This document shows, piece by piece, positions 7,984-39,785 of a DNA stretch of 46,334 nucleotides. The first letter of the stretch is position 1. Each line of letters starts with the position of its first letter. A program made the position numbers and the translations under genes. A model generated the notes under the pieces. The model made no database searches. It was not told where the DNA came from and saw nothing but the letters and a program-made list of their open reading frames with translations. The stretch is from an uncultured Anaerolineaceae bacterium (GTDB lineage Bacteria > Chloroflexota > Anaerolineae > Anaerolineales > E44-bin32): assembly GCA_964570595.1 (NCBI GenBank), contig CAZMZL010000001.1, positions 33,653-79,986 of the forward strand, in the 5' to 3' direction.

Positions 7984-8011
7984 TTGACTCGCCGTGATAC
8001 GCTTGTATAAT
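7984..8011 (+). promoter_or_regulatory. Sigma-70-type promoter of the serS leader
   Basis: TTGACT (7984-7989), a 16-nt spacer, then TATAAT (8006-8011), directly upstream of the T-box leader. Confidence 0.55.
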
Positions 8012-10680: not shown

Positions 10681-10693
10681 ATTAACGAGGCGC

Positions 10694-10918
10694 TTAATCT
10701 CCAGGTGGCGGGACGGGAAGGTCCTCTACCGTGACCGTGACCCACTTATCTCCTTCTTCGATCAGCATGACGGGGATATCATCTTTGATCGGGTATTTAC
10801 GTCCGCAATCCGCTTCCTGGCAAATGAGCCAGGATTCCTTGTAGTATGTGAGTAAGCCTTCATTTTCTCGCACACAGGCAGGACAGCGAAGTATTTCCAG
10901 CAGGTCTTCACTGATCAT
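10694..10918 (-). CDS. Trm112/UPF0434 family zinc-ribbon-like protein
   Basis: LLEILRCPAC...L.C....C...YPI.DDIPVML signature. ATG 10918 has GAGGAG 6 nt upstream; the ORF-track start at 11044 would overlap the VanW gene. Confidence 0.7.
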   Translation of the reverse strand: MISEDLLEILRCPACVRENEGLLTYYKESWLICQEADCGRKYPIKDDIPVMLIEEGDKWVTVTVEDLPVPPPGD

Positions 10919-10994
10919 GTTCATCTCCTCGTAGTCCGGATTTCGATTCAAAACGATAGACGATGACGGGCAGGTTGTCAAATACGCGATGGAA

Positions 10995-24774: not shown

Positions 24775-26009
24775 AAAAACGAATTGTGTTTATTGCCGAC
24801 GGACGAAGTCCTATCGCCCTTGGTTGGATGTCCCATTTTGTATCCGACGAATACGAAACCCACTTAATATCGACTTTTCCGTGCGAGCACCATCCGTCCA
24901 TTCACTCACTTCACATCGTTCCGGTGGCTTTCAGTGGGGCAGCGGGCTCGGGGGGACAGAAAACCGTCAGGGCTCCCGGAGGCGCCAGGGGCATCCGGGT
25001 CCGCAGTGCGGTTCGGCACTGGGTGGGGCCATTTACCGTTAAAAAGGCTTCTGCGAGGGTGGCGTCCATAATTCAATCGCTTTCTCCCGACCTTGTCCAT
25101 GCGCTCCGCATTCCTTTTGAGGGGATGGTCGCTGCAGGCGCCGATATCCACGCACCGCTCATCATCTCGGTTTGGGGGAATGATTTTACGCTGCATGCTG
25201 CGACCTCCCCTGGAATGAAGAGGCTCACGCGGGAAGCGATGGCACGCGCCGATGGTCTCCATACAGATTGTCAACGCGATGTTCGTCTGGCAACCCAATG
25301 GGGTTTTCGAGAGGCGGCATCCATCGTGCTGCCCGGAGGCGGAGGAATCAAGCGTGATATTTTTCACCCCGGACGGGTCATACCGGCGGGTATTGACGAT
25401 GAATTGGCGAAAAACCTGAGCGAAATTCCCTATGACGTTCCTGTCGTGATCAACCCCCGAGGCTTTCGCGCCTATGTGCGAAACGACACATTCTTCAAGT
25501 CCATCCCGCTGGTATTACGGGATGAACCCGAGGCGATTTTTCTTTGTGTCGGCATGAGAGATGAGAGCGAGGCTCACGCGTGGGTTCGGAGCCTGCAAAT
25601 CGAATCGAATGTACGCTTGTTACCACGAATGAGCCCGCGAGAAATGGCGGCGGGATACGGACGGGCGTGGGTCAGCGTTTCCCCATCTGAACACGATGGC
25701 ACCCCAAACACATTCCTTGAATCGATTGCCTGCGGATGTTTTCCCATTGTCGGTGATCTCGAATCGATGCGCGAGTGGATCGAGGCGGGGAAAAATGGTC
25801 TGCTGCTTGACCCGGGTGATCCACGGGCATGGGCGCAAGCCATCGTGCGTGCGATCAGGGATGACGACCTCCGCACAAGAGCAAAAAGCATCAACGAAGG
25901 ACTGATCGACGAGAAAGCTGATTATGGCTTGGTCCAGGCGAAAGCCAGGGAGTTTTATCGACATGTCCTGGACCAATACGATCCCGATATGCGAGCGAAC
26001 CATGTTTGA
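24771..26009 (+). CDS. Glycosyltransferase, GT4
   Basis: SEHDGTPNTFLESIACGCFPIVGDLESMREWI donor-binding motif. ATGA overlap with the previous GT. Confidence 0.75.
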   Translation: MKKRIVFIADGRSPIALGWMSHFVSDEYETHLISTFPCEHHPSIHSLHIVPVAFSGAAGSGGQKTVRAPGGARGIRVRSAVRHWVGPFTVKKASARVASIIQSLSPDLVHALRIPFEGMVAAGADIHAPLIISVWGNDFTLHAATSPGMKRLTREAMARADGLHTDCQRDVRLATQWGFREAASIVLPGGGGIKRDIFHPGRVIPAGIDDELAKNLSEIPYDVPVVINPRGFRAYVRNDTFFKSIPLVLRDEPEAIFLCVGMRDESEAHAWVRSLQIESNVRLLPRMSPREMAAGYGRAWVSVSPSEHDGTPNTFLESIACGCFPIVGDLESMREWIEAGKNGLLLDPGDPRAWAQAIVRAIRDDDLRTRAKSINEGLIDEKADYGLVQAKAREFYRHVLDQYDPDMRANHV

Positions 26010-27048
26010 AAAACTCGAAGACTATCCTGAAGCTACAATCCTCCATCACGTGGAACCCGACGGCACGTTGTGGGGAACCAGGGGGCGTTGGATTATTCGC
26101 CGGCGTGCCCAGTCTACATGGGAACGCATGAGTAAGTTTCCATTTGCAGTTCCACGCGACTTCTTTGGATTTTCACGCCCCACCGCAAGGGCGATGCGTG
26201 CGGATAAATCCAATCTGTTCGTGAACTCAAAAGGACGAACGCTCTGTATACGCGCTTCAAGCGTCTATGCGCTGGATGAAGATCAAAGTCTAAAACCACT
26301 TTTTGAGATTCAGGGGGACAGTGTCCTGCACGGTGGTATTTGTGAGGACGAGGAGGGCTGGACATACTTCGGCGAATATTTCATGAACTCTCAGCGACGA
26401 TCCGTCAGCATCTGGCGCGTCAACCCGGGTCTCGATGATTGGGAGGTGGCCTATGAGTTTCCCCCGGGGAGCGTGCGCCACATCCACGGTGTCTATCCGG
26501 ACCCTCATGACCCGGGCGCGTTATGGGCATGCACCGGCGACAATACTGGCGAATGCTTCTTCCTGCGGACGACGAATGCCTTTAGAACCATGGAAATGTT
26601 CGGCGACGGCAGTCAGTTATGGAGAACCGTACGACTTCACTTCACCGAAACCCATATTTGCTGGATTACGGATAGTCCGTTGGAGCAAAATTATGCTTGC
26701 AGGATGACGCGTGAAGACGGGGTTCTCGAACGAGGTCGTACCACCGAAGCGCCCGTATGGTATGGGGCTCAGACGGATGATGGGCTCCATATCGCTTTCA
26801 CGACAGTCGAGCCGGGCGCTTCGGTCAAGCGGAATACAGCCGCGGTATTGATCAGTCGAGATGGATTCGATTGGCAGGAGATCTACAATTTCAAAAAAGA
26901 TGCCTGGAGGCCCATGAAGCTTTTCAAATATGGGGTCATCAGTGTGCCTTCAGGGAAGATGAACAGCAAATCGGTATACATGAGCGGCGAAGGGCTGGTG
27001 GGTTTCGACGGTCGCAGTATGAAGGCATGTTTTGGAGAGAAGGAATAA
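26002..27048 (+). CDS. Hypothetical protein (beta-rich, possibly propeller-like), glycan-cluster associated
   Basis: ATG 26002 overlaps the upstream GT stop by 8 nt. Trp/Gly-rich strand-like periodicity and no recognisable catalytic motif. Confidence 0.55.
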   Translation: MFEKLEDYPEATILHHVEPDGTLWGTRGRWIIRRRAQSTWERMSKFPFAVPRDFFGFSRPTARAMRADKSNLFVNSKGRTLCIRASSVYALDEDQSLKPLFEIQGDSVLHGGICEDEEGWTYFGEYFMNSQRRSVSIWRVNPGLDDWEVAYEFPPGSVRHIHGVYPDPHDPGALWACTGDNTGECFFLRTTNAFRTMEMFGDGSQLWRTVRLHFTETHICWITDSPLEQNYACRMTREDGVLERGRTTEAPVWYGAQTDDGLHIAFTTVEPGASVKRNTAAVLISRDGFDWQEIYNFKKDAWRPMKLFKYGVISVPSGKMNSKSVYMSGEGLVGFDGRSMKACFGEKE

Positions 27049-27733
27049 ATTGATTCGCGGGTGGACTGCCGGGGTTTTAAAATGGGGCGAGCATTTGCTC
27101 GATGACAGCGTCGCGCCTTCTGAGCTGCTCGAGTTCCTCCAAAAAACCATTGTCAAGTTAAACGAACATCTCGAGCATCGCCCCAATGCATTCCCCGCAG
27201 CGATGATTCCGGAATTAGAGAGAGTCACTCTAGCTGTCGATGGGCCAAGATTATGTGTACCCGAATTTCGAGGCCAAACCGAAAGCCCTTCCGACGATGG
27301 ACCCTCGGCGGAAGAAATACGCATCTGGCGAGATTCCTTACCAGGTGGCCGTGTGCTTACGAAGGGTGGATTGGCGCATCAGACCGGAAGAATGCTCCTG
27401 GGGTTGTTGTCCACACAAGATCGATCCACCGACAGTTTCTATCATGATTCTATGGAACGGCTTCTAAGGCATGTCGAAGTTCAAAGAAAAGCTTGTCTGC
27501 AGCCTCATCCATCGCTGTCGTGGTCTGAAACGTGGATCGAGAAACATGATATTGCCTTCTTGTTCTGCGTGCATGCCAGAAAATCGTGCGATTTCAGGTA
27601 TCTCAATGGGGCCATGAAGCTCAATGACTGGGGGTGCCGCGCGCATCGCCGGAACGCATCGGTGGAACAAACCATGGGTCTGGTACGTGCGATTTTAGAA
27701 CAAGAGCGCATTCTTGCGGAGTTTTGGGGATGA
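27032..27733 (+). CDS. Hypothetical protein, glycan-cluster associated
   Basis: Start is TTG 27032 or TTG 27050, so uncertain. The stop overlaps the formyltransferase ATG (ATGA). No family recognised. Confidence 0.45.
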   Translation: MERRNKLIRGWTAGVLKWGEHLLDDSVAPSELLEFLQKTIVKLNEHLEHRPNAFPAAMIPELERVTLAVDGPRLCVPEFRGQTESPSDDGPSAEEIRIWRDSLPGGRVLTKGGLAHQTGRMLLGLLSTQDRSTDSFYHDSMERLLRHVEVQRKACLQPHPSLSWSETWIEKHDIAFLFCVHARKSCDFRYLNGAMKLNDWGCRAHRRNASVEQTMGLVRAILEQERILAEFWG

Positions 27734-28524
27734 TGCGATTGGTCTTATTCGCCCCTACCCGAAAGAGCCTTTACTCTAGAATTGTTGCACAAAGAATCCT
27801 GGTTGAGCCGGGGGTCAGCCTCAGTGCGATCGTCGTCCGATCGATATGGTCATTTCAGCGGTTCCGGTCCGAGCTGCGTCGGGATGGCCCGCGACTGTTG
27901 GGTAAAATCCGGACCAAGCTCGTTCTTGGTGAAGGGGCTCTGCCGGACAGCGAGGATAGTAAATCCACGGGAGCGGAGAGAGCAGCCGGCGATGATTTGT
28001 ATAAAATGGCGCGCCGGCATGGAATTCCATTTGCCTCAACGCCGGATCTGAACAATAAGCGGGTTGAATGTCAATTAGAGGATATCGCCCCGCATCTCAT
28101 CGTCTTTACGGGCGGGGGATTAATTCGATCGAATATTTTACATATTCCATCGCTGGGGGTCATGAACTGCCACTCAGGCATCCTGCCTCGCTACCGGGGG
28201 ATGGACGTCGTTGAGTGGCCCCTGTTGGAGGACGATGCCGAGATCGCTCAAATCGGGCTGAGCCTGCACTTCATGGACCGGGGCGTCGATACGGGGCCCT
28301 TGCTGCTGCAGCATCACGAGATGGTGCGAGCCGATGATTCGATCGAGGCGATCCGAACCAGACTTGAATCTCAGATGATCGAGTTGATGATGGAAGGAAT
28401 TCGCGGGCTCAAGAGCGGAACATTGAAACCGAGGCCCCAGATGGTTGACGAGGGGAAACAATATTACGTGATGCACCCTCGATTGAAGAGGATCGTCACG
28501 CGTAAACTTCGTGCTTCAATCTAA
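27730..28524 (+). CDS. Formyltransferase (sugar N-formyltransferase / Fmt N-domain-like)
   Basis: VMNCHSGILPRYRGMDVVEWPL carries the Asn-His-Asp formyltransferase signature. 264 aa, ATGA-coupled to the upstream gene. Confidence 0.8.
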   Translation: MMRLVLFAPTRKSLYSRIVAQRILVEPGVSLSAIVVRSIWSFQRFRSELRRDGPRLLGKIRTKLVLGEGALPDSEDSKSTGAERAAGDDLYKMARRHGIPFASTPDLNNKRVECQLEDIAPHLIVFTGGGLIRSNILHIPSLGVMNCHSGILPRYRGMDVVEWPLLEDDAEIAQIGLSLHFMDRGVDTGPLLLQHHEMVRADDSIEAIRTRLESQMIELMMEGIRGLKSGTLKPRPQMVDEGKQYYVMHPRLKRIVTRKLRASI

Positions 28525-28644
28525 CGACCAGGGGGAACGCATCACGCCTCTGACCAGGAAGATGGTCCCGATGGGTTGCGGAGGATGTGAGGGAGTTTTC
28601 CTGAGTGCTATAATCGCATCAAATCGCGTGGAGATGAGCGTGGC

Positions 28645-30813
28645 ATGAAGCAGGTTGTGCAAGATTTTCGAACTGGATCCACGAGCGTGATCGATGTGCC
28701 CGTCCCTCAACTCAAGCCCACGATGGCGCTTGTACGGAATTCCGCATCACTGGTGTCGGTCGGGACAGAACGCGCACTTGTAGCGTTTGCCTCAAAAAAC
28801 ATCCTGGGAAAAGCTCGGTCTCGTCCGGATCTGGTTCGGCAGGTTGTCGATAAAGCGCGGCGCGAAGGAATTCTCACCACCATCGATGCCGTCCGGAACA
28901 GGTTGGATCATCCGCTCCCCCTGGGGTATTCCTCCGCAGGCACGGTTATCCAGGTTGGACCAGATCTTACCGATTACCAGGTGGGCGACCGGGTGGCCTG
29001 CGCAGGAGGGGGATACGCCGTGCATGCGGAGTACGCAGCCGTCCCCAGGAATTTATTGGCGAAGATACCCGAGAACGTTGATTTCGAGGCGGCCGCGTTC
29101 GCCACGCTCGGCTCGATTGCGCTCCACGGTTTCAGGTTAGCTGATCCAACACTTGGCGAATCAGTGGCGGTAATTGGGCTGGGCGTGTTGGGGCTTCTTG
29201 CGGCCGGGATCGCCAGGGCTGCTGGCTGCAAAGTTTTTGGGATTGATGTGGATCCCGAGAGAGTGGAATTTGCACAACAGCTTGGATTTGCGGCGGTCGC
29301 CCGCGACGAAGCCGAACCTGCGGGACTTGGTTTCACCAAGGGCATGGGGTTCGACATCGTTCAAATATGCGCGGATACACTCGAGGATGACACGGTCATC
29401 CTCGCCGGGGAAATCGCCCGAGATCGCGGCCGGGTCATCTCGACGGGTGTGGTCGGGACCGGGCTTCCGCGCAAAACTTACTTCCAGAAAGAATTGAGTT
29501 TTATCGTCTCTCGATCTTATGGACCCGGCCGGTACGATAAGAATTACGAAGAAGGGGGGGCGGATTACCCGATCGGATATGTGCGCTGGACGGAACAGCG
29601 CAACCTGTCGGCATTCCTCGAAATTTTGGCTGAGGAGGCTTTCGATGTGCATCCATTGATCAGCCATCGATTTCCTATCGAACGGGCGGAGGAAGCATAC
29701 GTACTTCTTTCTTCAGAGAATGCCGATCCATTTCTTGGTGTGGTCTTAACATATCCCGGGTCGGATCCTGATGCTGAACCGCCGGTGAGGAGGATTGCGT
29801 TATCGACCACGACCACGGGCGGCGGCGATGATGTCCGTTTGGGCGTGATCGGAGCGGGAAATTTCGCCAGAGCCGTGATGCTCCCCGTCATGCAGAGTTC
29901 CGGTGTACAGTGCGTCGGCCTTGCTGCGGCGAGTGGTTTGAGCGCCACAGAAACGGCGAAACGCTTTGGATTTGAGTATGCCGCGACCGCTTCCGATGAG
30001 ATTCTGGCAGATGACCGCGTAAATGCTGTGGCCATTCTCACTCGACATGATCTTCACGCCCCTCTCGTCCTACAAGCGCTCAAAGCGAACAAACATGTGT
30101 TTTGCGAAAAACCTCTGGCGCTCAATCAAGAGGATCTTCGCGCAATCGCCAAGACACTCGAGGGCTGTGATCGCATACTTGCCGTGGGCTTCAACCGGCG
30201 ATTTTCGCCCCACGCGCTCGAGTTAAAAAAGTTTCTTCATTCTGTGAATGAGCCACTTATTATGAATTACCGCGTCAACGCGGGTCTCTTGCCCCGGGAT
30301 CATTGGCTCCACGATCCAGTTCAAGGCGGAGGGCGCATCATTGGTGAGGGATGTCACTTCATTGATTTCCTCAGCTTCGTCGCTTCCTCTCCGATCGCGT
30401 CCGTCGTGGTCAAAGGAACGCCGTCGGATGATCGCTATCGGGAAGACAATGTCATCCTGATGCTGAAGTATCAGAATGGATCCCTGGGAACAATTACATA
30501 CGTCGCCAATGGCGACCGTTCGCTTCCAAAAGAGCGATTGGAGATATTCGGGGGCGGAAGCGTGGTAATCCTGGATGATTTCCGCAGGCTTGAGTTGAAC
30601 CGCAATGGGCGCAAGCGCGTACGTCAAAACCGCTGGCGGCAGGATAAGGGACACCGCCCGGAGTGGGAGGCCTTTATGCGCGCCGTGCGTGACGGCGGCC
30701 CACCACCCATACCCTACCAGGAAGTATTTGATGTCTCCCTGGCGTCGATCGTGGCACTGGACGCGCTGCGATCCGGCTCAGAAGTTCAATTCGAGCCGAT
30801 GTCTCTGACATAA
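28645..30813 (+). CDS. Bi-domain oxidoreductase: N-terminal MDR/zinc-ADH-like + C-terminal Gfo/Idh/MocA
   Basis: The N-terminal half has GDRVACAGGGYAVHAEY and VIGLGVLGLLAA. The C-terminal half has RLGVIGAGNFAR and EKPLAL (Gfo/Idh/MocA EKP motif). Confidence 0.85.
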   Translation: MKQVVQDFRTGSTSVIDVPVPQLKPTMALVRNSASLVSVGTERALVAFASKNILGKARSRPDLVRQVVDKARREGILTTIDAVRNRLDHPLPLGYSSAGTVIQVGPDLTDYQVGDRVACAGGGYAVHAEYAAVPRNLLAKIPENVDFEAAAFATLGSIALHGFRLADPTLGESVAVIGLGVLGLLAAGIARAAGCKVFGIDVDPERVEFAQQLGFAAVARDEAEPAGLGFTKGMGFDIVQICADTLEDDTVILAGEIARDRGRVISTGVVGTGLPRKTYFQKELSFIVSRSYGPGRYDKNYEEGGADYPIGYVRWTEQRNLSAFLEILAEEAFDVHPLISHRFPIERAEEAYVLLSSENADPFLGVVLTYPGSDPDAEPPVRRIALSTTTTGGGDDVRLGVIGAGNFARAVMLPVMQSSGVQCVGLAAASGLSATETAKRFGFEYAATASDEILADDRVNAVAILTRHDLHAPLVLQALKANKHVFCEKPLALNQEDLRAIAKTLEGCDRILAVGFNRRFSPHALELKKFLHSVNEPLIMNYRVNAGLLPRDHWLHDPVQGGGRIIGEGCHFIDFLSFVASSPIASVVVKGTPSDDRYREDNVILMLKYQNGSLGTITYVANGDRSLPKERLEIFGGGSVVILDDFRRLELNRNGRKRVRQNRWRQDKGHRPEWEAFMRAVRDGGPPPIPYQEVFDVSLASIVALDALRSGSEVQFEPMSLT

Positions 30814-30820
30814 AGCAGCC

Positions 30821-33040
30821 ATGTCTCCTCCTGTATTTCAGGCTGCACGTGAACTCGGGTTAGGTCCGCTGGCGCGATTCGCCCGCTATCAATTGGGGTT
30901 AAAATCAGGATGGTACCGCTGGCGTGCGCCTACATCCACATGGGATGATGTCCCGCTCAAATCCTCCCTGAGCAAAGGCGTCCCGATCACGCCTGGCGAA
31001 TACGCTGCTTTCCGTTCGGAAAATTCCCCTCCCTTCTTCTTCAATGATCCTCGTTCTTTACAGACCCAACTGATCGGCGTGCTGCTGGGGGGTCTCGGCG
31101 GTGGGATTCGCGAGGCCGAGGAGATCGTACAAGGTCGCTACCGCTTGTTTGGCATGGCTCCAATTCGATTGGGCCTTCCCCCTGATTGGGGCGCGTTTGC
31201 ACCCGTCCCCCATATTCCAGAATTCCAGCCCGTCCCCCTTGATAAACATTGGTCCAAATATTCGATCGACGATATGCCGGGGGATGTTAAGCTGCTGTGG
31301 GAGATCGCTCGCTTTGGATGGGTGTATGCTCTCTGTCGAGCGGATGTGATCACGGGCAAAGAGAAGTACTTCGAAACCTTCTGGAAATTGCTGAATTCAT
31401 GGCTTGCATCCAACCCTCCGAATACCGGCCCCCACTGGTATTCGGCTCAAGAAGTGGCCATCCGTTTACTCGGGACCGTGTTTGCAAACTATGCCTTCAC
31501 AGGGCAGATCCTGCTCGGAGATGAGCGTCAGGGCGTGATTACCCAGAGCATCGACGCATATGGACGACGAATAGCAATTACGTTGAGCTATGCACAAGCA
31601 CAGGGGAACAATCACCTGCTCGTTGAAGCCGTGGCGCTCTATACGGCGGGACTGCTCTATCCGGAGATGAAAAGGGCCGCTCGCTGGCGAGACCTGGGAA
31701 GGAAGTGGACAATCCATGCTCTCAGGCGCCAAATCTTTGAGGATGGCGGATATATTCAGCATTCAGTGAATTATCAACGCCTGGCCCTGCAGGCGGGCTT
31801 GTGGATTGCTCGGCTCGCGGGTATCCATCAAGAATCCCTTCCCGACGATGTCCTTGAGAATTTATGGAAGACGACCTCGCTTCTGCATGCGCTGGTGCAG
31901 CCCGAGAACGGTTGTGCACCGAATTTCGGTCCTAATGATGGCGCACAAATCTTTCCGTGGAGCACACGACCTATCGAGGACTTCCGGCCGACCCTGCAGG
32001 CTGCAGGTGTTTTATTTAAAGGTGTGCGGTTTTATGAACCCGGTCCGTGGGATGAGATGTGCATCTGGCTGGGTCTGGGTGAGACAGCAGAAGGGCTGGA
32101 TGTGGCGGAAGACGCAGGGACCCCACCTGGCAGGCGCATAACCTTCGAGGGAATCAGGGTTGAGCCCGCAGCCGATGCGGCAACAACTGCCGATGCAGGG
32201 GCATTCCCAGAGGCCGGTTTGTACATCATGTCCGGCCATCGAGCGCACGGCATCCTCCGGGCCGCGCACTTCACACATCGCCCGGGACACAGCGATCAAC
32301 TTCACTTCGATCTCTGGTGGCATGGCAGGAATATTCTTGTTGACCCGGGGAGCTATCTGTATAATGCGCCGCCGCCGTGGGAGAATGCCCTGGCTCTGGC
32401 GCGCTATCACAATACCGTGCTCGTCGACAATCAAGAGCCGATGACGCGCGCCGGAAGATTCCTGTGGCTTGACTGGGCGCAGGCCGAATTCATCGGTTCC
32501 TGGAAATCACCATCAGGGAAATCCGAGGTCCTTTCTTTCTGTCAAACTGGATATGAGCACCTCAAAGTCGTCCACCAGCGGACCGTAATCCGCATGGGGG
32601 ATGATCGCTGGATCATCGCCGACGACATTATCGGGGATGGGGACCAGGCACTGCGATTGAGTTGGTTGCTGGCGCATCTGCCCTGGCGTCGTCGAGAATG
32701 TGGGATTGAGTTGGAAGTAGGCACGGAGAGAGCCACCATCGATGTGGATGCTGGCGATTGCAGGATGGGCATCTATGCCGCGGGAACGCTCGTTGCAGGT
32801 GAAGAACTGGGGGAGCATGATCCTGTATCAGGGTGGTTTTCGCCGACGTATGCCGTAAAGACCCCGGCTCTTCAGTTGATCGTTCTCGTATCGAATACGT
32901 TGCCGGTACGGCTGTTGACGAGCATCACGTTCGGAGAAGATGAGAGCGGATCCGCTGAAGTAGCCTGGCGGCCCCCTGAAAAGGGTCAGCCGGCGCTGGA
33001 CCGACTCCTCTTCGATGAAGAGGAATTAGAAATCTCATAA
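30821..33040 (+). CDS. Heparinase II/III-like (alginate-lyase-superfamily N-domain) protein
   Basis: 739 aa. NNHLLVEAVALYTAGLLYPE and HSDQLHFDLWWHGRNILVDPGSY are typical of the Hepar_II_III family. Confidence 0.8.
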   Translation: MSPPVFQAARELGLGPLARFARYQLGLKSGWYRWRAPTSTWDDVPLKSSLSKGVPITPGEYAAFRSENSPPFFFNDPRSLQTQLIGVLLGGLGGGIREAEEIVQGRYRLFGMAPIRLGLPPDWGAFAPVPHIPEFQPVPLDKHWSKYSIDDMPGDVKLLWEIARFGWVYALCRADVITGKEKYFETFWKLLNSWLASNPPNTGPHWYSAQEVAIRLLGTVFANYAFTGQILLGDERQGVITQSIDAYGRRIAITLSYAQAQGNNHLLVEAVALYTAGLLYPEMKRAARWRDLGRKWTIHALRRQIFEDGGYIQHSVNYQRLALQAGLWIARLAGIHQESLPDDVLENLWKTTSLLHALVQPENGCAPNFGPNDGAQIFPWSTRPIEDFRPTLQAAGVLFKGVRFYEPGPWDEMCIWLGLGETAEGLDVAEDAGTPPGRRITFEGIRVEPAADAATTADAGAFPEAGLYIMSGHRAHGILRAAHFTHRPGHSDQLHFDLWWHGRNILVDPGSYLYNAPPPWENALALARYHNTVLVDNQEPMTRAGRFLWLDWAQAEFIGSWKSPSGKSEVLSFCQTGYEHLKVVHQRTVIRMGDDRWIIADDIIGDGDQALRLSWLLAHLPWRRRECGIELEVGTERATIDVDAGDCRMGIYAAGTLVAGEELGEHDPVSGWFSPTYAVKTPALQLIVLVSNTLPVRLLTSITFGEDESGSAEVAWRPPEKGQPALDRLLFDEEELEIS

Positions 33041-34299
33041 TGCACATACTTTTGGTTCATCAAGCCTTCGCCGCGCTGGGTGAGCCCGGCGGGACACGAC
33101 ATCACGAATTTGCACGCCAGCTTACACAGCGGGGACATCGCGTGACCGTGATCACGGGCCAGGTGAATTATTTAACCGGGGAAAAGAGAGCTACCCGTGC
33201 ATGGTTTGCGCGCGAAGTTGATGATTCGGGCGTTGAGATCTGGCGTTGTCGAAGCTATTCCGGCTGGCATAGGTCATTTTTTCATCGATTGCTTAGCTTC
33301 TTCTCGTTTATGATCACATCCTTCATGGTTGGGCTGCGCATCCCTGAAGTCACGCTGGTGTGGGGGACGTCCCCTCCAATTTTTCAGGCGGTGACGGCAT
33401 GGATGCTGGCGCGCTTGAAAGGCGCACCTTTCTTGTTGGAAGTTCGCGATTTGTGGCCATACTTTGCCATCGAGGTGGGGGTCCTCCGACAGCCGATCAT
33501 CATCCGCTTGTCTGAGTGGCTTGAACGCTTTTTGTACAAGCGGGCGGAGGGCCTGGTGATCAATTCGCCCGGGTTCATGGAGCATGTTTCTTCAAGAGGC
33601 GGCGAGCCCGTATTCCTCGTCCCGAACGGTGTGGATGTCGCCATGTTTGATCGAACGATTGGTGGAGAGGAATTCAGGAATGCGCATCATCTTCAGGATG
33701 AATTCGTCCTGCTCTACGCAGGGGCGCACGGTGTGTCGAATGATCTCGAAACCATCCTGGACGCCGCGCTGATTTTGAAAGAAGAGCCATCCATTCGTTT
33801 TGTTCTCCTTGGAGACGGGAAGGAGAAGGCCGCACTCAAGGAAAAGGCTCGAGAATATTCTCTGAGAAATGTGCTGTTTCTGCCGCCGGTCCCCAAGAAC
33901 GAGATCCCGGGCGCTCTGGCAGGTGCGGACGCCTGCGTCGCAATTCTCAAACCTATCGATGCCTATACGACCACATACCCAAACAAGGTTTTTGATTATA
34001 TGGCGGCCGGAAAACCGGTCCTTCTGATGATCGATGGCGTGATCCGGACGGTGGTGGAGGATGCTCATGCGGGAATCTTCATTAAACCGGGGGACGCCGT
34101 TGTTCTGGCGGCTGCTGTCCAGGAACTGGAAGCCGACCCTGCGCTCAGAGATCGACTTGGGAAAGCTGGGAGGAGATGCGTCGAGGAGCGCTTCGATCGG
34201 CCAGCTTTGGCCGGCGAGATGGAAGGGGTCATGATGGCGGTGGTCGCATCGAAGGGCGCGAAATTTCCTCAACGGAATGGAGATCGTGATTTGGGATGA
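33040..34299 (+). CDS. Glycosyltransferase, GT4 (WbuB-like)
   Basis: MHILLVHQAF...GGTRHHEFARQL..GH.VTVIT N-terminus as in WbuB-type enzymes. TAATG overlap with the upstream gene. Confidence 0.85.
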   Translation: MHILLVHQAFAALGEPGGTRHHEFARQLTQRGHRVTVITGQVNYLTGEKRATRAWFAREVDDSGVEIWRCRSYSGWHRSFFHRLLSFFSFMITSFMVGLRIPEVTLVWGTSPPIFQAVTAWMLARLKGAPFLLEVRDLWPYFAIEVGVLRQPIIIRLSEWLERFLYKRAEGLVINSPGFMEHVSSRGGEPVFLVPNGVDVAMFDRTIGGEEFRNAHHLQDEFVLLYAGAHGVSNDLETILDAALILKEEPSIRFVLLGDGKEKAALKEKAREYSLRNVLFLPPVPKNEIPGALAGADACVAILKPIDAYTTTYPNKVFDYMAAGKPVLLMIDGVIRTVVEDAHAGIFIKPGDAVVLAAAVQELEADPALRDRLGKAGRRCVEERFDRPALAGEMEGVMMAVVASKGAKFPQRNGDRDLG

Positions 34300-34922
34300 G
34301 TGATCTTCAAAAGAGTGTTCCGAGGCGAAAACGCATGTTTGATCTCGCATTGACGATCCCGGGGGTGGTCATCATAAGTCCGATTCTACTCTTGCTGGCG
34401 ATCTACATCCGCATCCGCCTGGGTCCCCCCGTTTTTTTTCGCCAGTTGCGCCCGGGGCTTGAAGGGAGGCCCTTTGTCCTGTACAAATTCCGGACGATGA
34501 CATCCGAGGTGGATCACCAGGGAAACCTACTTCCGGATTCACAGCGCATGACGTCTTTGGGACAATGGATGCGTTCCTTCAGCCTGGACGAGTTGCCCGA
34601 GCTCTTTAATGTGCTCAAGGGGGAAATGAGCCTTGTAGGACCTCGGCCTCTGCTCATGCAATACCTGGAGCGGTATACACAAGAACAGGCAAGGCGACAT
34701 GAAGTGCTGCCGGGGATCACCGGTTGGGCACAGATCCATGGCCGCAATGCGCTGACCTGGGAGGACAAGTTCCGCTTTGACACATGGTACGTGGATCATT
34801 GCTCTCTGCAGCTAGACATAAAGATACTGACGCTCACTTTTTGGAAGACGATCAAGCGGGAGGGGATCTCACAACCCGGGCATGCCACTTCGGAAGAGTT
34901 CATGGGGAGCGGAAACGAGTGA
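34296..34922 (+). CDS. Small monotopic phosphoglycosyl transferase (PglC/WbaP C-domain family, initiating sugar transferase)
   Basis: FDLALTIPGVVIISPILLLLAIYIRI re-entrant helix, P.FF.Q.R.G, KFRTM, DELPQ-like DELPELFNVLKGEMSLVGPRP. Confidence 0.85.
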   Translation: MSDLQKSVPRRKRMFDLALTIPGVVIISPILLLLAIYIRIRLGPPVFFRQLRPGLEGRPFVLYKFRTMTSEVDHQGNLLPDSQRMTSLGQWMRSFSLDELPELFNVLKGEMSLVGPRPLLMQYLERYTQEQARRHEVLPGITGWAQIHGRNALTWEDKFRFDTWYVDHCSLQLDIKILTLTFWKTIKREGISQPGHATSEEFMGSGNE

Positions 34923-35044
34923 GGAATATTTGTCCAGATAATGCACAGATTGCTCCGTATGAAAGAGTTGCAGAAATCCATGAAGAAGGGTAGGATGAGG
35001 GCTGGGTAGCACCCAAAATCATTCAATTGCCGAGGAGGAAAGAG

Positions 35045-35242
35045 ATGAAAGAGCCTTTGGAGTTTTATGACGTGAAGTCCAAGAGCAAATTTACAAGTTC
35101 AGAGTGGCGAATTGAGGTCAAAGAGTCGAATGGCCGCACGCGTTATTTTGCAGTTGCGAAGGTTCCCGAGGGGACGCATGAAGCATGGCGCATCGTGGGC
35201 GCCGATTTCGGCAAACAGAATATGGAACAAGGAATTTCCTAA
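35045..35242 (+). CDS. Small (65 aa) basic hypothetical protein
   Basis: ATG 35045 is preceded by GAGGAGG and followed by a strong intrinsic terminator. The beta-rich, Lys/Arg-rich sequence is not confidently recognised. Confidence 0.5.
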   Translation: MKEPLEFYDVKSKSKFTSSEWRIEVKESNGRTRYFAVAKVPEGTHEAWRIVGADFGKQNMEQGIS

Positions 35243-35265
35243 CACCCTGGTAAGGCAATGAATGG

Positions 35266-35295
35266 ACCGCCCAGTACTCTGGGCGGTTTATGTTT
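35266..35295 (+). terminator. Rho-independent terminator after the small ORF
   Basis: ACCGCCCAG-TACT-CTGGGCGGT stem-loop followed by TTATGTTT. Confidence 0.7.
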
Positions 35296-35371: not shown

Positions 35372-36295
35372 ATGATTCAGCTTAAGCACCAAGACCTTTA
35401 TCGCCAAATGCTGCGTATCCGTCGTTTTGAAGAGACGGTTCTCGATTCGTTTCCCCGCGGCCTTTTTTACGGCACGACCCATACTTACATCGGACAAGAA
35501 GCCAATGCCGTTGGGGTGCTCGCCTCGATGCAGGAGGGGGACATCGTGGTCAGCAACCATCGCTGCCACGGCCATTTCCTCGCATATGGCGGATCGATGC
35601 ACGCGCTCGCAGCGGAGCTCATGGGCCGCTCCACAGGGATTTGCGGCGGGCGAGGTGGAAGTCAGCATATCCAGTGGAAGGATTTTTATGCGAACGGCAT
35701 ACTCGGCGGCACTGTGCCGCTCGCGGTCGGTATGGCATTGGGCGAGCGGGAATCGGGGACGGGAAGGATCGTTTTTTCCTTTCTTGGCGATGGCACGTTG
35801 GGGGAAGGCGTCGTGTATGAGAGCTTGAACATGGCGTCGCTCTGGAACCTGCCGGTGCTCTTTCTGGTAGAGAACAATCGTTATGCACAAAGTACGCCCG
35901 TACACCTTCACCTGGCAGGTGAAATCACCACGCGATTCGAAGCCTTCGGCATCCCCGTGGAAGCCATGGATACCGTCGATGTTTCCTTGATTTCGGTCGG
36001 CGCCGATCGGGCGTCTAATCTTGTCCGGGAAGGCAGCGGTCCCCGGGCAATCGTGATGGATACCTACCGCTTTGCGCCGCACTCGAAAGGCGATGACAGT
36101 CGAGATCCGGAAGAAATCGCAAGGTTCAGGAAGAATGACCCCCTCCTGGTCCAGGCTGCCAGGATTGCGCAGGATGATCTGCAACCGATCGAATCCGAAA
36201 TCGAAGGTGAGGTGGTTGAAGCGTTCAAGCGCGCCCAGGCGGACCCCTTCGCCGACCCGAACCACCTCACAGCTCCAAGAGGGGTGAATCGATGA
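35372..36295 (+). CDS. TPP-dependent 2-oxoacid (pyruvate/acetoin-type) dehydrogenase E1 alpha subunit
   Basis: LYRQMLRIRRFEE N-terminus and the TPP motif GDGTLGEGVVYESLNMASLWNLPVLFLVENNRYA. Confidence 0.85.
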   Translation: MIQLKHQDLYRQMLRIRRFEETVLDSFPRGLFYGTTHTYIGQEANAVGVLASMQEGDIVVSNHRCHGHFLAYGGSMHALAAELMGRSTGICGGRGGSQHIQWKDFYANGILGGTVPLAVGMALGERESGTGRIVFSFLGDGTLGEGVVYESLNMASLWNLPVLFLVENNRYAQSTPVHLHLAGEITTRFEAFGIPVEAMDTVDVSLISVGADRASNLVREGSGPRAIVMDTYRFAPHSKGDDSRDPEEIARFRKNDPLLVQAARIAQDDLQPIESEIEGEVVEAFKRAQADPFADPNHLTAPRGVNR

Positions 36296-37281
36296 GAACT
36301 GTGCTGGAGGCGCTCAACGAGGGCATGCATGCCTGTTTGGCGGAGTCGGACAAAGTCTATTTCCTTGGCGAGGATATCCTTGACCCTTATGGTGGCGCCT
36401 TTAAGGTCGCTCGAGGCTTATCGAGCCAGTACCCGGGACAAGTCATCACCACGCCGGTTTCCGAAGCGGGCATTGTGGGGATGGCCGTCGGTATGGCGCT
36501 GCGGGGATACCGGCCAATTGTCGAAATCATGTTTGGCGATTTTCTCATGCTGGCGGCGGATCAATTGATCAATCATGCTTCTAAATTCCGCTGGATGAGC
36601 AATGATCGCGTCCACGTTCCATTGGTGGTTCGTACGCCCATGGGCGGAGGTCGCGGTTATGGTCCCACCCACAGCCAGACGCTCGAGAAACACTTGCTCG
36701 GAGCGCCGGGGATGCGGATCGTCGCGGTCACAACACTGATGGATCCGGCCGAACTCCTTCGTTCGGTAGTCTTCGAAGATGATGACCCGGTACTGTTCGT
36801 CGAACATAAGGCGCTCTATCCTGTTCAAGTTCAAGCATGGGATCAACAGGACTTCGATGTCCTGGTATCGGAGGATCGCTATCCGGTCTTCCGTTTGTGC
36901 ATTGCCGGCGCGCCCTCACCGAGCGCAACGGTCATGACCTATGGTTATATGGCAGAGATTGCACTGGAGGCGGCCCACCGGCTGGCTTATGAGCGCGAGG
37001 TGTTTATCGATGTGATCGCACTGACGGATCTGATTCCCGATGATGAATCTGTATTTGACGCGGTCGAGGAGACGGGTGTGCTGTTGACCCTGGAAGAGGG
37101 ATCCATCACCCTGGGATGGGGCGCCGAGATCGTGGCACGATGCTCCGAGCGCTTCAGGTCCCTGAAAACCCGCCGAATTGGAGCGCTTGATATGCCCATT
37201 CCGGCGGCAGGCACCCTTGAGCCGGCCGTCCTGCCGGGAGTGGATGATGTGATGAGCGCTGTCCTTGCGATGACCGGATAA
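36292..37281 (+). CDS. 2-oxoacid dehydrogenase E1 beta subunit (transketolase-like Pyr + C-terminal domains)
   Basis: VYFLGEDI..YGGAFKV..GL, TPVSEAGIVGMAVGMAL, RTPMGGGRGYGPTHSQ. ATGA overlap with E1 alpha. Confidence 0.9.
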   Translation: MRTVLEALNEGMHACLAESDKVYFLGEDILDPYGGAFKVARGLSSQYPGQVITTPVSEAGIVGMAVGMALRGYRPIVEIMFGDFLMLAADQLINHASKFRWMSNDRVHVPLVVRTPMGGGRGYGPTHSQTLEKHLLGAPGMRIVAVTTLMDPAELLRSVVFEDDDPVLFVEHKALYPVQVQAWDQQDFDVLVSEDRYPVFRLCIAGAPSPSATVMTYGYMAEIALEAAHRLAYEREVFIDVIALTDLIPDDESVFDAVEETGVLLTLEEGSITLGWGAEIVARCSERFRSLKTRRIGALDMPIPAAGTLEPAVLPGVDDVMSAVLAMTG

Positions 37282-37448
37282 TTTGGTCAAGTGCTCGATC
37301 GAAGGCGCCATTCGAGGGTCAATCCGTCTTCGAAGGAAATCAAAGAATCGGTCTGCGGACCTTTTCCTCATATGATTGCTTCGATCGGTAGAGGTGTACA
37401 ATACCCACCTCGTCCATGCCGTCATCCCCACAACCGAGAGGTCGAGGA

Positions 37449-38552
37449 ATGCCCGATCCAGTAGAAGTTCTTGTGCCACTTTTGAACCCGAATGAGCCCG
37501 AGGTCCAGGTGAGCGCCCTTCATGTTGAGGAGGGTCAGCGGGTGAAGGAGGGAGAGGTACTTTGCACGGTTGAGACCACGAAATCTACAGCAGAAGTCAT
37601 GGCCGAACAAGCCGGGTATGTCCTCGGGCTTGAGATATCCACGGGTGATCATATTCGAGCGGGCGCACGGCTGTGCTGGTTGGGACATGAGCCTGATTGG
37701 GAGCCACCCGAGCCCCCGGTTCAGATCGAACCTGAGAGAGGGGGAACCCCCCCGGAGGGGCTCCGCATTTCGCAGCCTGCGCTCGAACTTGCGCGCGAGC
37801 TGGGGCTTGATCTTGCCGATCTGCCGGTTGGACCTCTGGTTACGGAAGCGATGATTCAAAGAGCACAAACGAGCGAAGGAGGCGGTGCGTTGAGCGTACT
37901 TGAACAGGATTTTAACCCTCACTCGGTCATCATCTATGGCGGCGGCGGACATGGAAAAGCGGTCATCGATCTTGTTCGCTCACTTGGAACCTTCGAGATC
38001 GTCGGGGTCATTGATGATGGGATAGGCAAAGGCGAGCATGTCATGGATCTCCCCATATTGGGATCGAAAGATGACCTGACCGGCTTGCGCGAAAACGGTA
38101 TTCGTCTTGCCCTCAACGCCGTTGGGGGAGTGGGGGATGTTCACAGTCGTGTGGAGGTGTTCCGCAGATTGGCCCAGGCAGGATTCGCCTTTCCAAATCT
38201 CATCCATCCGACGGCATTTGTGGAACCGAGCGTGAAGCTCGATTCTGGTGTGCAAGTATTCCCACATGCATATGTCGGCAGCGACTCCACTGTCGGATTC
38301 GGTTGCATTGTCAATACAGCGGCTGTCGTTTCACATGATTGTACGCTGAGTTCCTATGTCAATGTGGCCCCGGGCGCCTTGCTCGCTGGCGGGGTGACGA
38401 TTGGTGAAGGGGTGCTGGTTGGGATGGGAGCAACGCTGAATCTTCATTTGAATGTAGGTCCGAATGCCCGCATTGGGAACAGCGCTGTGATTAAGGATGA
38501 TGTGCCGGCGGGTCAGATTGTCCGTGCCGGAAGTGTCTGGCCTGAAAGTTAA
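37449..38552 (+). CDS. Fusion protein: lipoyl/biotinyl-type carrier domain + peripheral-subunit (E1/E3)-binding domain + NeuD/PglD-family hexapeptide sugar acyltransferase
   Basis: Lipoyl-like domain about 37461-37685 with VETTKS (Lys codon 37581-37583). Pro-rich linker. PSBD-like ISQPALELARELGLDLADL about 37758-37865. NeuD/PglD N-domain VIIYGGGGHGKAVIDL plus LbH repeats with VVSHDC (His) about 37923-38549. The alternative ATG 37416 lacks an SD. Confidence 0.8.
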   Translation: MPDPVEVLVPLLNPNEPEVQVSALHVEEGQRVKEGEVLCTVETTKSTAEVMAEQAGYVLGLEISTGDHIRAGARLCWLGHEPDWEPPEPPVQIEPERGGTPPEGLRISQPALELARELGLDLADLPVGPLVTEAMIQRAQTSEGGGALSVLEQDFNPHSVIIYGGGGHGKAVIDLVRSLGTFEIVGVIDDGIGKGEHVMDLPILGSKDDLTGLRENGIRLALNAVGGVGDVHSRVEVFRRLAQAGFAFPNLIHPTAFVEPSVKLDSGVQVFPHAYVGSDSTVGFGCIVNTAAVVSHDCTLSSYVNVAPGALLAGGVTIGEGVLVGMGATLNLHLNVGPNARIGNSAVIKDDVPAGQIVRAGSVWPES

Positions 38553-38585
38553 GGGGCATCTAGTTGAGAGAAAATGGAGTGAGAG

Positions 38586-39785
38586 TTGACGACCAAGCGT
38601 AAACTTGAAATTCCCATGTCTGCGCCCGATATTACGGATAGGGAGCGTAATGCGGTCCTGGACGTTCTGCGGACGGATCGACTGAGCATGGGGCCGAATA
38701 TTGCGGCGTTTGAGGTTGCAGCGGCTTCGCTGGTTGGCGTCAAACATGGTATTGCAGTGAGTTCAGGAACTGCGGGGCTGCATCTTTGTATCCGGGCTGC
38801 AGGTGTCCGTGATGCGGACTGGGTGATCACGACACCATTCTCCTTTGTCGCCACCGGAAACGTGATGCTTTACGAGCGGGCATACCCGATATTTGTGGAT
38901 GTGGATCCGGTGAGCGGCAATCTCGATGTCGACCTCGTGAAGAAGGCCGCAGTCGATCTGGTCCAGGGCGGCGCTTCGGTCGAGCGCTGGATGCCGCGAA
39001 AGGGTATTCGCGGGGAGGGGAAATTAAAAGCCCTCATCCCCGTGGATGTTTTTGGTCAACCCGCAGACTACGACGCCCTGCAGGAGATTACCGACACTCA
39101 TAATCTTGTCCTCGTTGAGGATTCATGCGAGGCCATCGGCGCGGAGTTCAATGGAAGGAAGGCGGGTTCGTTTGGAGACGCAGGTATTTTCGCCTTCTAT
39201 CCTAACAAACAGATGACGACGGGCGAGGGCGGGGTCATCGTCACCGATCGAGACGATTGGGCGGGAAAAATTCGTGCTCTCCGGAATCAAGGGCGCGCAC
39301 CCGGAGATACCTGGTTGGACCATGCATTCCTGGGGTACAACTATCGCATGGATGAAATGAGCGCTGCTTTGGGAAGGGTTCAGTTGACCCGGCTGGATGA
39401 ACTGGTCGAAAAGCGTGCGATCGTGGCATCCTTATATGCAGAAGGTCTCAAAGGAATGGGAGGCGTCGAAACGCCGGTTTTGCTCCCGTCCACCAGCCGT
39501 ATGAGTTGGTTTGTTTATGTCATCCGTTTACATCACGAGATCGATCGAGCGATGGTGATCCATCAATTGCGTGATCAGGGAATTCCTTCTCGTCCATATT
39601 TCTCGCCGATCCATCTGCAGCCATTCTACAAAGAACAGTTCGGGTATCGGGAAGGTGATTTTCCCGTCGCAGAAGATCTTGGAAGACGAAGTCTTTCCAT
39701 TCCATTCTCAGGAGTCATGAGCCAGAACCAGGTTGAGTATGTTTGCGAAACGTTAAGAGCGGTTCTGGCGAATACAGCGTATTAA
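38586..39785 (+). CDS. DegT/DnrJ/EryC1/StrS-family PLP-dependent nucleotide-sugar aminotransferase
   Basis: IPMSAPDITDRE, GIAVSSGTAGLHL, FSFVAT, DSCEAIGA, FAFYPNKQMTTGEGG (PLP Lys). TTG start with GGAG 6 nt upstream. Confidence 0.85.
   Translation: MTTKRKLEIPMSAPDITDRERNAVLDVLRTDRLSMGPNIAAFEVAAASLVGVKHGIAVSSGTAGLHLCIRAAGVRDADWVITTPFSFVATGNVMLYERAYPIFVDVDPVSGNLDVDLVKKAAVDLVQGGASVERWMPRKGIRGEGKLKALIPVDVFGQPADYDALQEITDTHNLVLVEDSCEAIGAEFNGRKAGSFGDAGIFAFYPNKQMTTGEGGVIVTDRDDWAGKIRALRNQGRAPGDTWLDHAFLGYNYRMDEMSAALGRVQLTRLDELVEKRAIVASLYAEGLKGMGGVETPVLLPSTSRMSWFVYVIRLHHEIDRAMVIHQLRDQGIPSRPYFSPIHLQPFYKEQFGYREGDFPVAEDLGRRSLSIPFSGVMSQNQVEYVCETLRAVLANTAY

Follow-up and report, generated by a model that had tools for sequence, protein, structure and literature searches.

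A lipoyl-armed sugar N-acyltransferase paired with a 2-oxoacid dehydrogenase E1: a candidate coenzyme A-independent N-acylation cassette

A 46,334-nt stretch of DNA from an uncultured Anaerolineaceae bacterium (hereafter the window) carries, at positions 35372-39785 of the + strand, four co-directional open reading frames (ORFs) whose translations correspond to the alpha and beta subunits of a thiamine diphosphate (ThDP)-dependent 2-oxoacid dehydrogenase E1, a 367-aa chimera, and a DegT-family aminotransferase. The chimera joins the swinging arm of a dehydrogenase E2, comprising a lipoyl-type domain and a peripheral subunit-binding domain (PSBD), to a NeuD/PglD-type sugar N-acyltransferase. 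Our best reading of this module is a self-contained N-acylation cassette, a miniature 2-oxoacid dehydrogenase complex in which the E2 core has been exchanged for a sugar N-acyltransferase. Functional coupling of E1, carrier arm, and transferase is very probable. For the full mechanism, in which the E1-loaded lipoyl arm would hand its acyl group directly to the fused transferase without coenzyme A (CoA), we lean only modestly in favor. A first-pass annotation of the same DNA had assigned these four genes to this strand, with the third as an E2-like arm fused to a transferase and devoid of the E2 catalytic domain; Pfam matches, an ATGA overlap between the E1 alpha stop and the E1 beta start, and the domain searches described below agree with it.

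The chimera most likely starts at ATG 37449, because a GAGG precedes this codon and the resulting translation matches a 367-aa protein in the database at 100% identity; the first ATG of the ORF is at 37416. The N-terminal domain matches Biotin_lipoyl (PF00364, E 1e-11 to 1e-12), and a 48-sequence family profile searched against the Protein Data Bank (PDB) matches E2 lipoyl domains over this region. Within the motif VETTKS (residues 41-46), Lys45 is the predicted attachment site, and its conservation, which the first-pass annotation had proposed as a check, is extensive. K45 in ETTKS is invariant across 81 Chloroflexota sequences. A set of 117 full-length cluster representatives (50% identity), which extends down to 28% identity to the query, keeps K45 in 116 and the transferase residue H296 likewise in 116. 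In a further set of 120 sequences, from a subfamily with named members in Bacteroidota and Armatimonadota, E42, K45, N289, H296, G314, and N344 are each present in 120/120. Counts for the lysine alone in three sequence sets are 80/80, 117/118, and 120/120. Overall, the lipoyl lysine and the transferase histidine are near-invariant over more than 300 homologs, down to 28% identity.

Following the lipoyl domain, a PSBD was accepted only after family profiles of residues ~100-144 had matched solved PSBDs, since the Pfam E3_binding match on the single chimera sequence was sub-threshold (E 0.05, over helix 1). Built from 56 close relatives, such a profile recovered the PSBD chain 2eq8_C at E 0.003; built from 110 diverse relatives, it recovered 1w4i (E 4.7e-8) and 2eq9_C (2.2e-7), then 1w4j, 2eq8, 2btg, 2cyu, 1w4h, and 1bal. 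The matches of the second profile lie between E 4.7e-8 and 1e-4, and E2 PSBD chains account for nine of the ten best. The alignment spans both helices. In an AlphaFold2 model, the lipoyl domain has a pLDDT of 82-94, helices occupy residues 109-117 and 133-141, and the linkers at 90-98 and 142-153 are disordered; a Foldseek search with this model returned PerB, PglB-ATD, full-length E2 models, and lipoyl L2 domains. Homologs are 362-516 aa long, and their linkers vary widely in length, as expected if these segments serve as a flexible tether.

The C-terminal 210 residues are by sequence a clear member of the class that includes PglD, PerB, VioB, PglB-ATD, and LegH. They match PglD_N (PF17836, E 2.5e-11), an alpha/beta domain that binds nucleotide sugars, Hexapep (PF00132, E 1.3e-10), and the NeuD/PglB/VioB family TIGR03570 (180.9 bits vs. 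a cutoff of 160.8), and the 48-sequence profile matches PerB 4ea7 (E 4e-37), PglB-ATD 4m98, VioB 7txp, and PglD 3bss in the PDB over this part. PerB, PglB-ATD, VioB, and PglD N-acetylate NDP-4-amino-4,6-dideoxy-hexoses. The triad H296-D297-C298 is invariant in the 81 Chloroflexota sequences, with H296 at the position of the catalytic histidine of PglD (H125), PerB (H141), and VioB (H135). A gap-free alignment places H296, N289, and G314 opposite VioB H135, N128, and G153, for which catalytic roles have been described (PMC9271549). No PF00198 domain or other E2 catalytic core was detected in the chimera by Pfam, NCBIfam, or PDB searches and, because this core defines the family, the chimera is classed here as not an E2 family member. 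Of the profile matches anticipated by the first-pass annotation, those to Biotin_lipoyl, PglD_N, TIGR03570, and Hexapep were found and 2-oxoacid_dh was absent as expected; E3_binding was sub-threshold with the single sequence, and the PSBD became significant with family profiles. None of the refuting outcomes named at first pass was observed.

The PDB matches of both E1 subunits are E1 components of pyruvate dehydrogenase (PDH) and branched-chain 2-oxoacid dehydrogenase (BCKDH). The nearest solved relative of E1 alpha is human PDH E1 alpha (158 bits vs. 74 bits for BCKDH E1 alpha), and E1 falls below the NCBIfam equivalog cutoffs for PDH. Conservation was counted over 61 to 72 relatives from the loci described below. 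In E1 alpha, the GDG of the ThDP motif GDG...NN is present in 59/59 with NN also conserved, and the “PHS” histidine, which aligns to GHS of human E1 alpha, is kept in 60/61. Complete E1 beta relatives carry Glu58 in 63/63 cases and His127 of “THSQ”, aligned to HSQ of the Thermus and human E1 beta, in 64/64. By motif rather than by structure, Glu58 and His127 correspond to E59-beta and H128-beta, and the “PHS” histidine to H271-alpha, of Geobacillus stearothermophilus E1p, residues with roles in ThDP activation and in the reductive acetylation of lipoamide (PMC2663715). The module E1 appears to have every sequence feature looked for in a lipoamide-acylating alpha2beta2 ThDP-dependent E1, and is predicted to be fit for reductive acylation of a lipoyl group. 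Pyruvate would be the default guess for its substrate, as E1 alpha is closest to PDH E1 alpha.

A role of this E1 as the central PDH of the cell was considered and rejected. A pyruvate:ferredoxin oxidoreductase (PFOR) is encoded in the same window (1812-5429, +; 1205 aa; POR_N, POR, EKR, Fer4, and TPP_enzyme_C), and the organism can thus make acetyl-CoA from pyruvate without E1; moreover, no E2 or E3 gene lies nearby, and E1 is situated inside a glycan locus.

The pairing of E1 with the chimera recurs widely. A genome scan gave 80 loci, nearly all from Anaerolineales and other Chloroflexota metagenome-assembled genomes, including Ca. Aquidulcis; Chloroflexota and distant loci are together given L numbers, up to L093. 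Among the 73 Chloroflexota loci with enough flank, E1 beta lies at most 400 nt 5′ of the chimera in 65, another gene is inserted between the two in three more, and E1 beta is fragmented or cut by a contig end in a further two, which places E1 beta upstream (within 2.5 kb) in 70 of the 73. E1 alpha is present in 58/66 loci, and Bac_transf lies on the same strand 5′ of E1 in 45/58. DegT is found directly 3′ of the chimera in 40/73. Since the same order is seen in ~70 independent loci and in several phyla, it is more than a chance arrangement, and the synteny with E1 that the first-pass annotation had asked about holds almost everywhere, in at least five phyla. One locus, from an assembly labeled as a Methanosarcinales archaeon (JAIWHF010000009.1, L004), has the gene order of the Anaerolineales loci and, with 60-72%, about their level of identity to the window proteins; it probably reflects contamination during binning and not presence of the cassette in an archaeon.

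In two of the loci with an inserted gene (L026, 4721-5992; L068, 4684-5979), a membrane protein of ~425 aa stands between E1 beta and the chimera, with what by eye look like an N-terminal zinc ribbon followed by NHL-type repeats; the insert of L033 is a different, 359-aa ORF. None of these 1.0-1.4 kb inserts encodes a lipoamide dehydrogenase (E3). Clustering of ORFs over 81 loci, examined for E3 or another partner, gave only housekeeping neighbors (RNase J, PPIase, LexA, dNK, PNPase, and others), and tblastn with E. coli LpdA gave weak partial oxidoreductase matches in only 3 of 93 loci. Taken across gene tables, ORF clustering, and tblastn, no E2-core or E3 gene was found in any of the 93 loci.

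An exhaustive search of 1.84 billion cluster representatives returned 456 proteins at E<=1e-30, with full-length chimeras making up the majority of the top 150; two longer matches (P0147 and P0194) proved to be tandem PglD-like repeats without a lipoyl domain and were set aside as irrelevant. The family comprises at least 116 clusters at 50% identity in at least five phyla. Its named distant members come from Chitinophagaceae, Bacteroidales, Polaribacter, Dokdonia, Armatimonadota, Omnitrophota, and Gemmatimonadota, including the cultured Dokdonia pacifica (WP_089371281.1), and their database name is always only “NeuD/PglB/VioB family sugar acetyltransferase”. E1 is encoded directly 5′ of the chimera in every distant locus with a readable upstream gene (L081-85 and L087-93); the truncated upstream gene of L086 lacks a Pfam record, and DegT, a dehydratase, and Bac_transf lie downstream in this locus. 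Outside Chloroflexota, E1 alpha and beta usually form one 640-685-aa polypeptide whose stop overlaps the chimera start by 4-11 nt, and the E1s of distant loci are 39-46% identical to the window E1 alpha. L084 carries E1 beta (6999-8004) as two separate ORFs of 127 and 201 aa, with a frameshift, an assembly error, or a pseudogene as possible causes.

Because the E1-chimera pair recurs across such varied loci, the conserved unit is a two-component cassette of E1 and the lipoyl-PSBD-transferase. The chimera takes the place of PglD or LegH in bacillosamine-type loci (L081, L086, and L088) and in nonulosonic-acid loci (L084 and L092), beside DegT and PglC-like transferase genes or beside NeuB and CMP-transferase genes. 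The Omnitrophota nonulosonic-acid locus (L092) has two DegT genes and, besides the chimera, a plain 205-aa PglD_N+Hexapep protein (10409-11026) in which DVNC replaces SHDC, leaving no catalytic histidine; the presence of both genes suggests two different N-acylations within one pathway. In Dokdonia, including D. pacifica, the E1-chimera pair directly follows nonribosomal peptide synthetase (NRPS) genes (condensation-adenylation-peptidyl carrier protein modules, thioesterase, and phosphopantetheinyl transferase) rather than glycan genes, and an NRPS-linked pair also occurs in a 3.9-Mb genome encoding a Por_Secre_tail protein of the type IX secretion system. In these contexts the cassette may also N-acylate a non-glycan product.

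In the mechanism we propose, E1 alpha/beta would use ThDP to decarboxylate a small 2-oxoacid and would pass the acyl group reductively to a lipoyl group on Lys45 of the chimera's N-terminal swinging arm. The PSBD would tether E1, and possibly lipoamide dehydrogenase too, to a trimeric beta-helix core. The S-acyl-dihydrolipoyl arm would then enter the donor groove occupied in PglD, PerB, and VioB by the pantetheine arm of acetyl-CoA; His296 would deprotonate the amine of the NDP-amino-sugar supplied by the neighboring DegT enzyme, and attack of this amine on the thioester would yield the N-acyl sugar. The upstream PglC-like transferase would load the sugar onto a lipid carrier, and an E3 encoded elsewhere and acting in trans would re-oxidize the dihydrolipoyl arm. 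Such a route is plausible because LpxA and LpxD accept carrier-tethered thioesters and AcoC exemplifies replacement of the E2 core.

Among the known systems closest to the module are the E2 components of pyruvate, 2-oxoglutarate, and branched-chain 2-oxoacid dehydrogenases, which share with the chimera the succession of a lipoyl domain with its conserved lysine, a Pro/Ala-rich linker, a PSBD, a second linker, and a trimer-forming catalytic domain whose active sites lie between subunits; E1 alpha/beta of the heterotetramer type is encoded directly upstream of the chimera. Unlike E2, the chimera has a PglD_N and left-handed beta-helix N-acyltransferase instead of the CAT-like PF00198 domain, its presumed acceptor is a sugar amine rather than CoA, no E3 gene is nearby, and the PSBD loop is three residues shorter than in solved PSBDs. 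AcoC-type acetoin dehydrogenase E2 consists of a lipoyl domain, a PSBD, and an alpha/beta-hydrolase fold and works with a PDH-like E1 alpha/beta, so that here too the E2 core is swapped for an unrelated fold. The arm of the chimera matches NF011457, and its PSBD profile matches 7qjm_A (PSBD plus alpha/beta-hydrolase), but AcoC still passes acetyl to CoA, whereas the replacing domain of the chimera belongs to a sugar-amine-acylating family. LpxA and LpxD are left-handed beta-helix trimers that take their acyl group from a carrier-protein thioester on a long prosthetic arm and not from free CoA; they are also among the weaker profile and PDB matches of the chimera. Their carrier is a separate phosphopantetheinyl-acyl carrier protein loaded by fatty-acid synthesis, whereas that of the chimera would be a fused lipoyl domain loaded by a ThDP enzyme. 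The combination of E1 with a lipoyl-PSBD-sugar acyltransferase has no description that we could find in the full-text literature, subscription-only literature being outside the coverage, and the first-pass annotation likewise knew of no characterized example.

The competing explanation that survives best, although we regard it as unlikely, is that the beta-helix domain is an ordinary acyl-CoA-dependent N-acetyltransferase served only indirectly by E1 and the arm. The arm might acetylate a CoA held in the groove as a bound relay, or E1 and the arm might couple transferase activity to 2-oxoacid or redox status. Characterized class I members are ~200-aa stand-alone or phosphoglycosyl transferase-fused enzymes that use acetyl-CoA (PMC9271549); the chimera belongs to this bona fide CoA-using PglD/PerB/VioB class, with the His/Asp pair and Asn conserved, and differs from it in the 150-aa lipoyl-PSBD arm, an insert, and an invariant Asn at the VioB Met183 position. 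At the CoA-contact sites, VioB R170, E171, and R189 are replaced by N331, L332, and D350, but PerB and PglB differ there too; phosphate-binding residues vary even among proven CoA users, and basic residues near these positions are not consistently absent in the chimeras. Asn344 is invariant in all ~320 chimeras, whereas proven CoA-dependent relatives carry Met or Ala at this position, which in VioB is the CoA-contacting middle residue of the Gly182-x-Gly184 turn. The Gly182-equivalent is not conserved outside Chloroflexota, and the insert adds three residues (GGxG) to PglD_N after the Gly67-equivalent.

The C-terminal end of the domain (residues 343-367, window 38475-38552) divides the family. 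Chimeras of the Chloroflexota subfamily keep a C-terminal G..P turn like that of PglD, in line with CoA use; in those of the Bacteroidota type the chain stops ~16 residues past Asn344, and the C-terminal Gly-x-Pro turn, which in class I enzymes folds over CoA, is missing. Together, the peculiarities of the donor site (Asn344, loss of Gly182, the insert, and the missing turn) would fit an altered donor without amounting to proof of one. Beyond the donor site, an indirect role of the arm is difficult to reconcile with the lack of any known lipoyl-to-CoA transfer domain, either an E2 CAT-like core or an AcoC-type hydrolase fold, in Pfam and NCBIfam searches; a PFOR-bearing cell already has acetyl-CoA; and retention of the arm-PSBD-E1 set in at least five phyla points to an obligatory part in catalysis. 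The plain PglD-like protein of L092 was considered as a control for CoA use and is unusable, as it has no catalytic histidine.

Several observations weigh against direct transfer from a lipoyl arm to a sugar. The Chloroflexota transferase domain is full-length and retains the general shape of the CoA groove; since this groove is kept and the comparison of contact residues is not decisive, acetyl-CoA may be used. Both lipoylation of K45 and use of an acyl-lipoyl donor by the transferase are predictions, and the profile score alone does not part lipoyl from biotinyl domains (~37 bits for single lipoyl domains vs. 36 bits for biotin carboxyl carrier protein, BCCP); the assignment to lipoate is instead made from motif and context, which favor it. 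Neither E3 nor lipoate ligase is encoded near the module. The chimera occurs without E1 in L032 and L078, each with 6 kb of upstream sequence available, and perhaps in L040, where neither the 1.2 kb available upstream nor 6 kb downstream contains E1; here E1 might be supplied from another part of the genome, or the chimera might function in another way. Should the acyl group be acetyl, the need for this machinery in a cell that contains acetyl-CoA is not evident. Finally, no sugar 4,6-dehydratase is encoded in the glycan locus of the window or in most Anaerolineales loci, which makes the acceptor sugar uncertain: the sole dehydratase candidate in the window is a generic short-chain dehydrogenase/reductase gene (5555-6535) 30 kb from the module, and 4,6-dehydratases adjoin the module only in distant loci.

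The first-pass annotation had itself raised a different role for E1, the addition of a two-carbon branch to a keto-sugar in the manner of AviB1/AviB2. In such a role, as for AviB1/AviB2 or Pau11/Pau12, E1 would use hydroxyethyl-ThDP derived from pyruvate; the arm would accept electrons or be vestigial, and the transferase would act separately. E2-less E1 alpha/beta-like pairs have been implicated in the branching of 4-keto-sugars in the avilamycin and paulomycin pathways (PMC4425429), and the sugar pathway of the module also passes through a keto-sugar. This role has become quite improbable, because it leaves the conserved arm unexplained: conservation of both the lysine and the PSBD across more than 300 sequences, to 28% identity, is not what a vestigial arm would show. 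Both lipoamide-acylating histidines are also retained in E1, which adjoins the carrier-transferase gene and not the dehydratase or aminotransferase gene, and the cassette is found beside nonulosonic-acid genes, beside NRPS genes, and as a pair standing alone. By their description (PMC4425429), rather than by sequence comparison, AviB1/AviB2 and Pau11/Pau12 differ further in having no lipoyl carrier partner and in a proposed C-C bond formation on a keto-sugar, whereas the lipoyl-PSBD partner fused to an N-acyltransferase in the module points to acyl (C-N) transfer. That the N-terminal domain is instead biotinylated, or a purely structural barrel-sandwich in a system independent of lipoate, is very improbable: PF00364 spans biotinyl and lipoyl domains and BCCP-type chains score like single lipoyl domains, but the motif is E-(T/S)-(T/S)-K-(A/S/T) instead of the biotinyl (A/V)-M-K-M, the next domain is a PSBD, known only in E2, E3-binding protein, and AcoC-type proteins, and the obligatory neighbor of the chimera is a lipoamide-acylating E1, with no carboxylase or carboxyltransferase nearby in any gene table.

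Under the lipoyl-to-sugar mechanism, the most probable acceptor is a 4-amino-4,6-dideoxy-hexose, either of bacillosamine or of legionaminic-precursor type, because a class I transferase occurs together with a PseC/LegC-like DegT and a PglC-like phosphoglycosyl transferase; NRPS-linked copies may have another acceptor. The DegT protein is assigned to the DegT_DnrJ_EryC1 family of fold-type I pyridoxal phosphate (PLP) enzymes, with the Schiff-base lysine visible in the motif FYPNKQMTTGEGG. Its best NCBIfam matches are PseC and LegC, both below cutoff, and it would supply the amino-sugar acceptor. DegT genes are also present in L081, L084, L086, L088, L089, and L092. For the acyl group, acetyl and another small acyl such as glycolyl or propionyl are about equally likely: the PDH-like E1 alpha suggests acetyl, and a non-acetyl group is hinted at because PFOR provides acetyl-CoA and the Omnitrophota locus has a second, plain PglD-like gene. 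More tentatively, and with considerable doubt, the cassette might be a lipoate-dependent “2-oxoacid:amine N-acyltransferase complex”, a portable two-gene module that serves bacillosamine, legionaminic/pseudaminic, and NRPS pathways in a CoA-free manner with acyl groups unavailable as CoA thioesters, e.g., glycolyl from hydroxypyruvate.

To our knowledge, lipoate-dependent enzyme systems are few, and in the 2-oxoacid and acetoin dehydrogenase complexes the acyl-lipoyl arm delivers to CoA. If the mechanism is correct, a lipoyl arm serving a sugar N-acyltransferase would extend the known uses of lipoate and add a class of acyl donor to glycan biosynthesis, and the novelty would lie in an assembly of the 2-oxoacid dehydrogenase type built around a non-orthologous catalytic core and acting on a new class of acceptor. 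It could account for unusual N-acyl groups on bacillosamine- or legionaminic/pseudaminic-type sugars, which are surface antigens and virulence or recognition determinants. Pathway predictions based on acetyl-CoA and drawn from the annotation “NeuD/PglB/VioB acetyltransferase” may then be wrong in many genomes. The hypothesis is directly testable, as D. pacifica is a cultured host and few soluble proteins are involved.

Table 1. Features of the module and its surroundings in the window, and arrangement of the E1-chimera cassette in distant loci
Feature	Locus	Coordinates	Strand	Evidence or context
PglC-like small phosphoglycosyl transferase (Bac_transf)	window	34296..34922	+	PF02397, E 1e-61
Small 71-aa ORF between Bac_transf and E1 alpha	window	35027-35242	+	own strong hairpin 3′
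Terminator-like hairpin, 3′ of 71-aa ORF, 5′ of E1 alpha	window	35262..35291	+	RNA fold
E1 alpha, ThDP-dependent 2-oxoacid dehydrogenase	window	35372..36295	+	PF00676, E 1e-54
E1 beta	window	36292..37281	+	PF02779, E 3e-31; PF02780, E 2e-15
Chimera, 367 aa	window	37449..38552	+	lipoyl, linker, PSBD, linker, PglD/PerB-class N-acyltransferase
Lipoyl-type carrier domain, aa ~4-80	window	37458..37688	+	PF00364, E 1e-12; K45 codon 37581-37583
PSBD homolog, aa 105-141	window	37761..37871	+	family profiles vs. solved PSBDs; disordered Pro-rich flanks
PglD_N + left-handed beta-helix acyltransferase	window	37926..38528	+	TIGR03570; His296 codon 38334-38336
DegT/PseC/LegC-type PLP aminotransferase	window	38586..39785	+	PF01041, E 2e-107
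Fused E1 alpha-beta	L081	6026-8011
Fused E1 alpha-beta	L085	1056-2993
Fused E1 alpha-beta	L088	2363-4309
Fused E1 alpha-beta	L089	5391-7319
Fused E1 alpha-beta	L092	6082-8004
Fused E1 alpha-beta	L093	5514-7508
Fused E1 + chimera	L087	6954-10110		next to NRPS genes
Fused E1 + chimera	L090	8053-11107		next to NRPS genes
Fused E1 + chimera	L091	5990-9113		next to NRPS genes
Cassette context	L081-83			Bac_transf, DegT, PglF-like dehydratase
Cassette context	L084			legionaminic/pseudaminic-type: dehydratase, DegT, NTP-transferase, E1, chimera, NeuB, 2-epimerase, CMP-transferase
Cassette context	L085			fused E1 alpha-beta + chimera
Cassette context	L088			Bac_transf, E1, chimera, DegT
Cassette context	L089			E1 immediately upstream of chimera; DegT present
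Cassette context	L092			Omnitrophota nonulosonic-acid locus
Cassette context	L093			isolated E1-chimera pair

Upstream of the module in the window lie genes for the PglC-like Bac_transf protein, which is the likely consumer of the acylated NDP-sugar, a family 4 glycosyltransferase (GT4), a heparinase II/III-like protein, and further glycan functions (Table 1). Genes of less common kinds in the part of the glycan locus at 27634-33040 (+) are a formyltransferase-like gene, one for a 722-aa fusion oxidoreductase (ADH_zinc_N and GFO/IDH/MocA), and the heparinase II/III-like gene. Three ORFs of this glycan locus, at 22356-23651, 25924-27048, and 27032-27733, gave no Pfam match. Because the genes 3′ of DegT are unrelated to the glycan locus, the module closes it, as had been concluded at first pass.

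A terminator had also been placed immediately before the module. The hairpin upstream of E1 alpha is strong (dG -22.6 kcal/mol, z -4.24, with 0/200 shuffles folding equally well) and is followed by a U-rich stretch, so this much of the claim stands; the hairpin is absent from the output of a simple consensus terminator scan. It is located 3′ of a conserved 71-aa ORF and not directly 3′ of Bac_transf. Searches of Pfam, NCBIfam, and the PDB gave no family or structure match for this small ORF. It shows 61-97% identity in 25 Chloroflexota loci, and in many of them is at least as well conserved as the neighboring enzymes.

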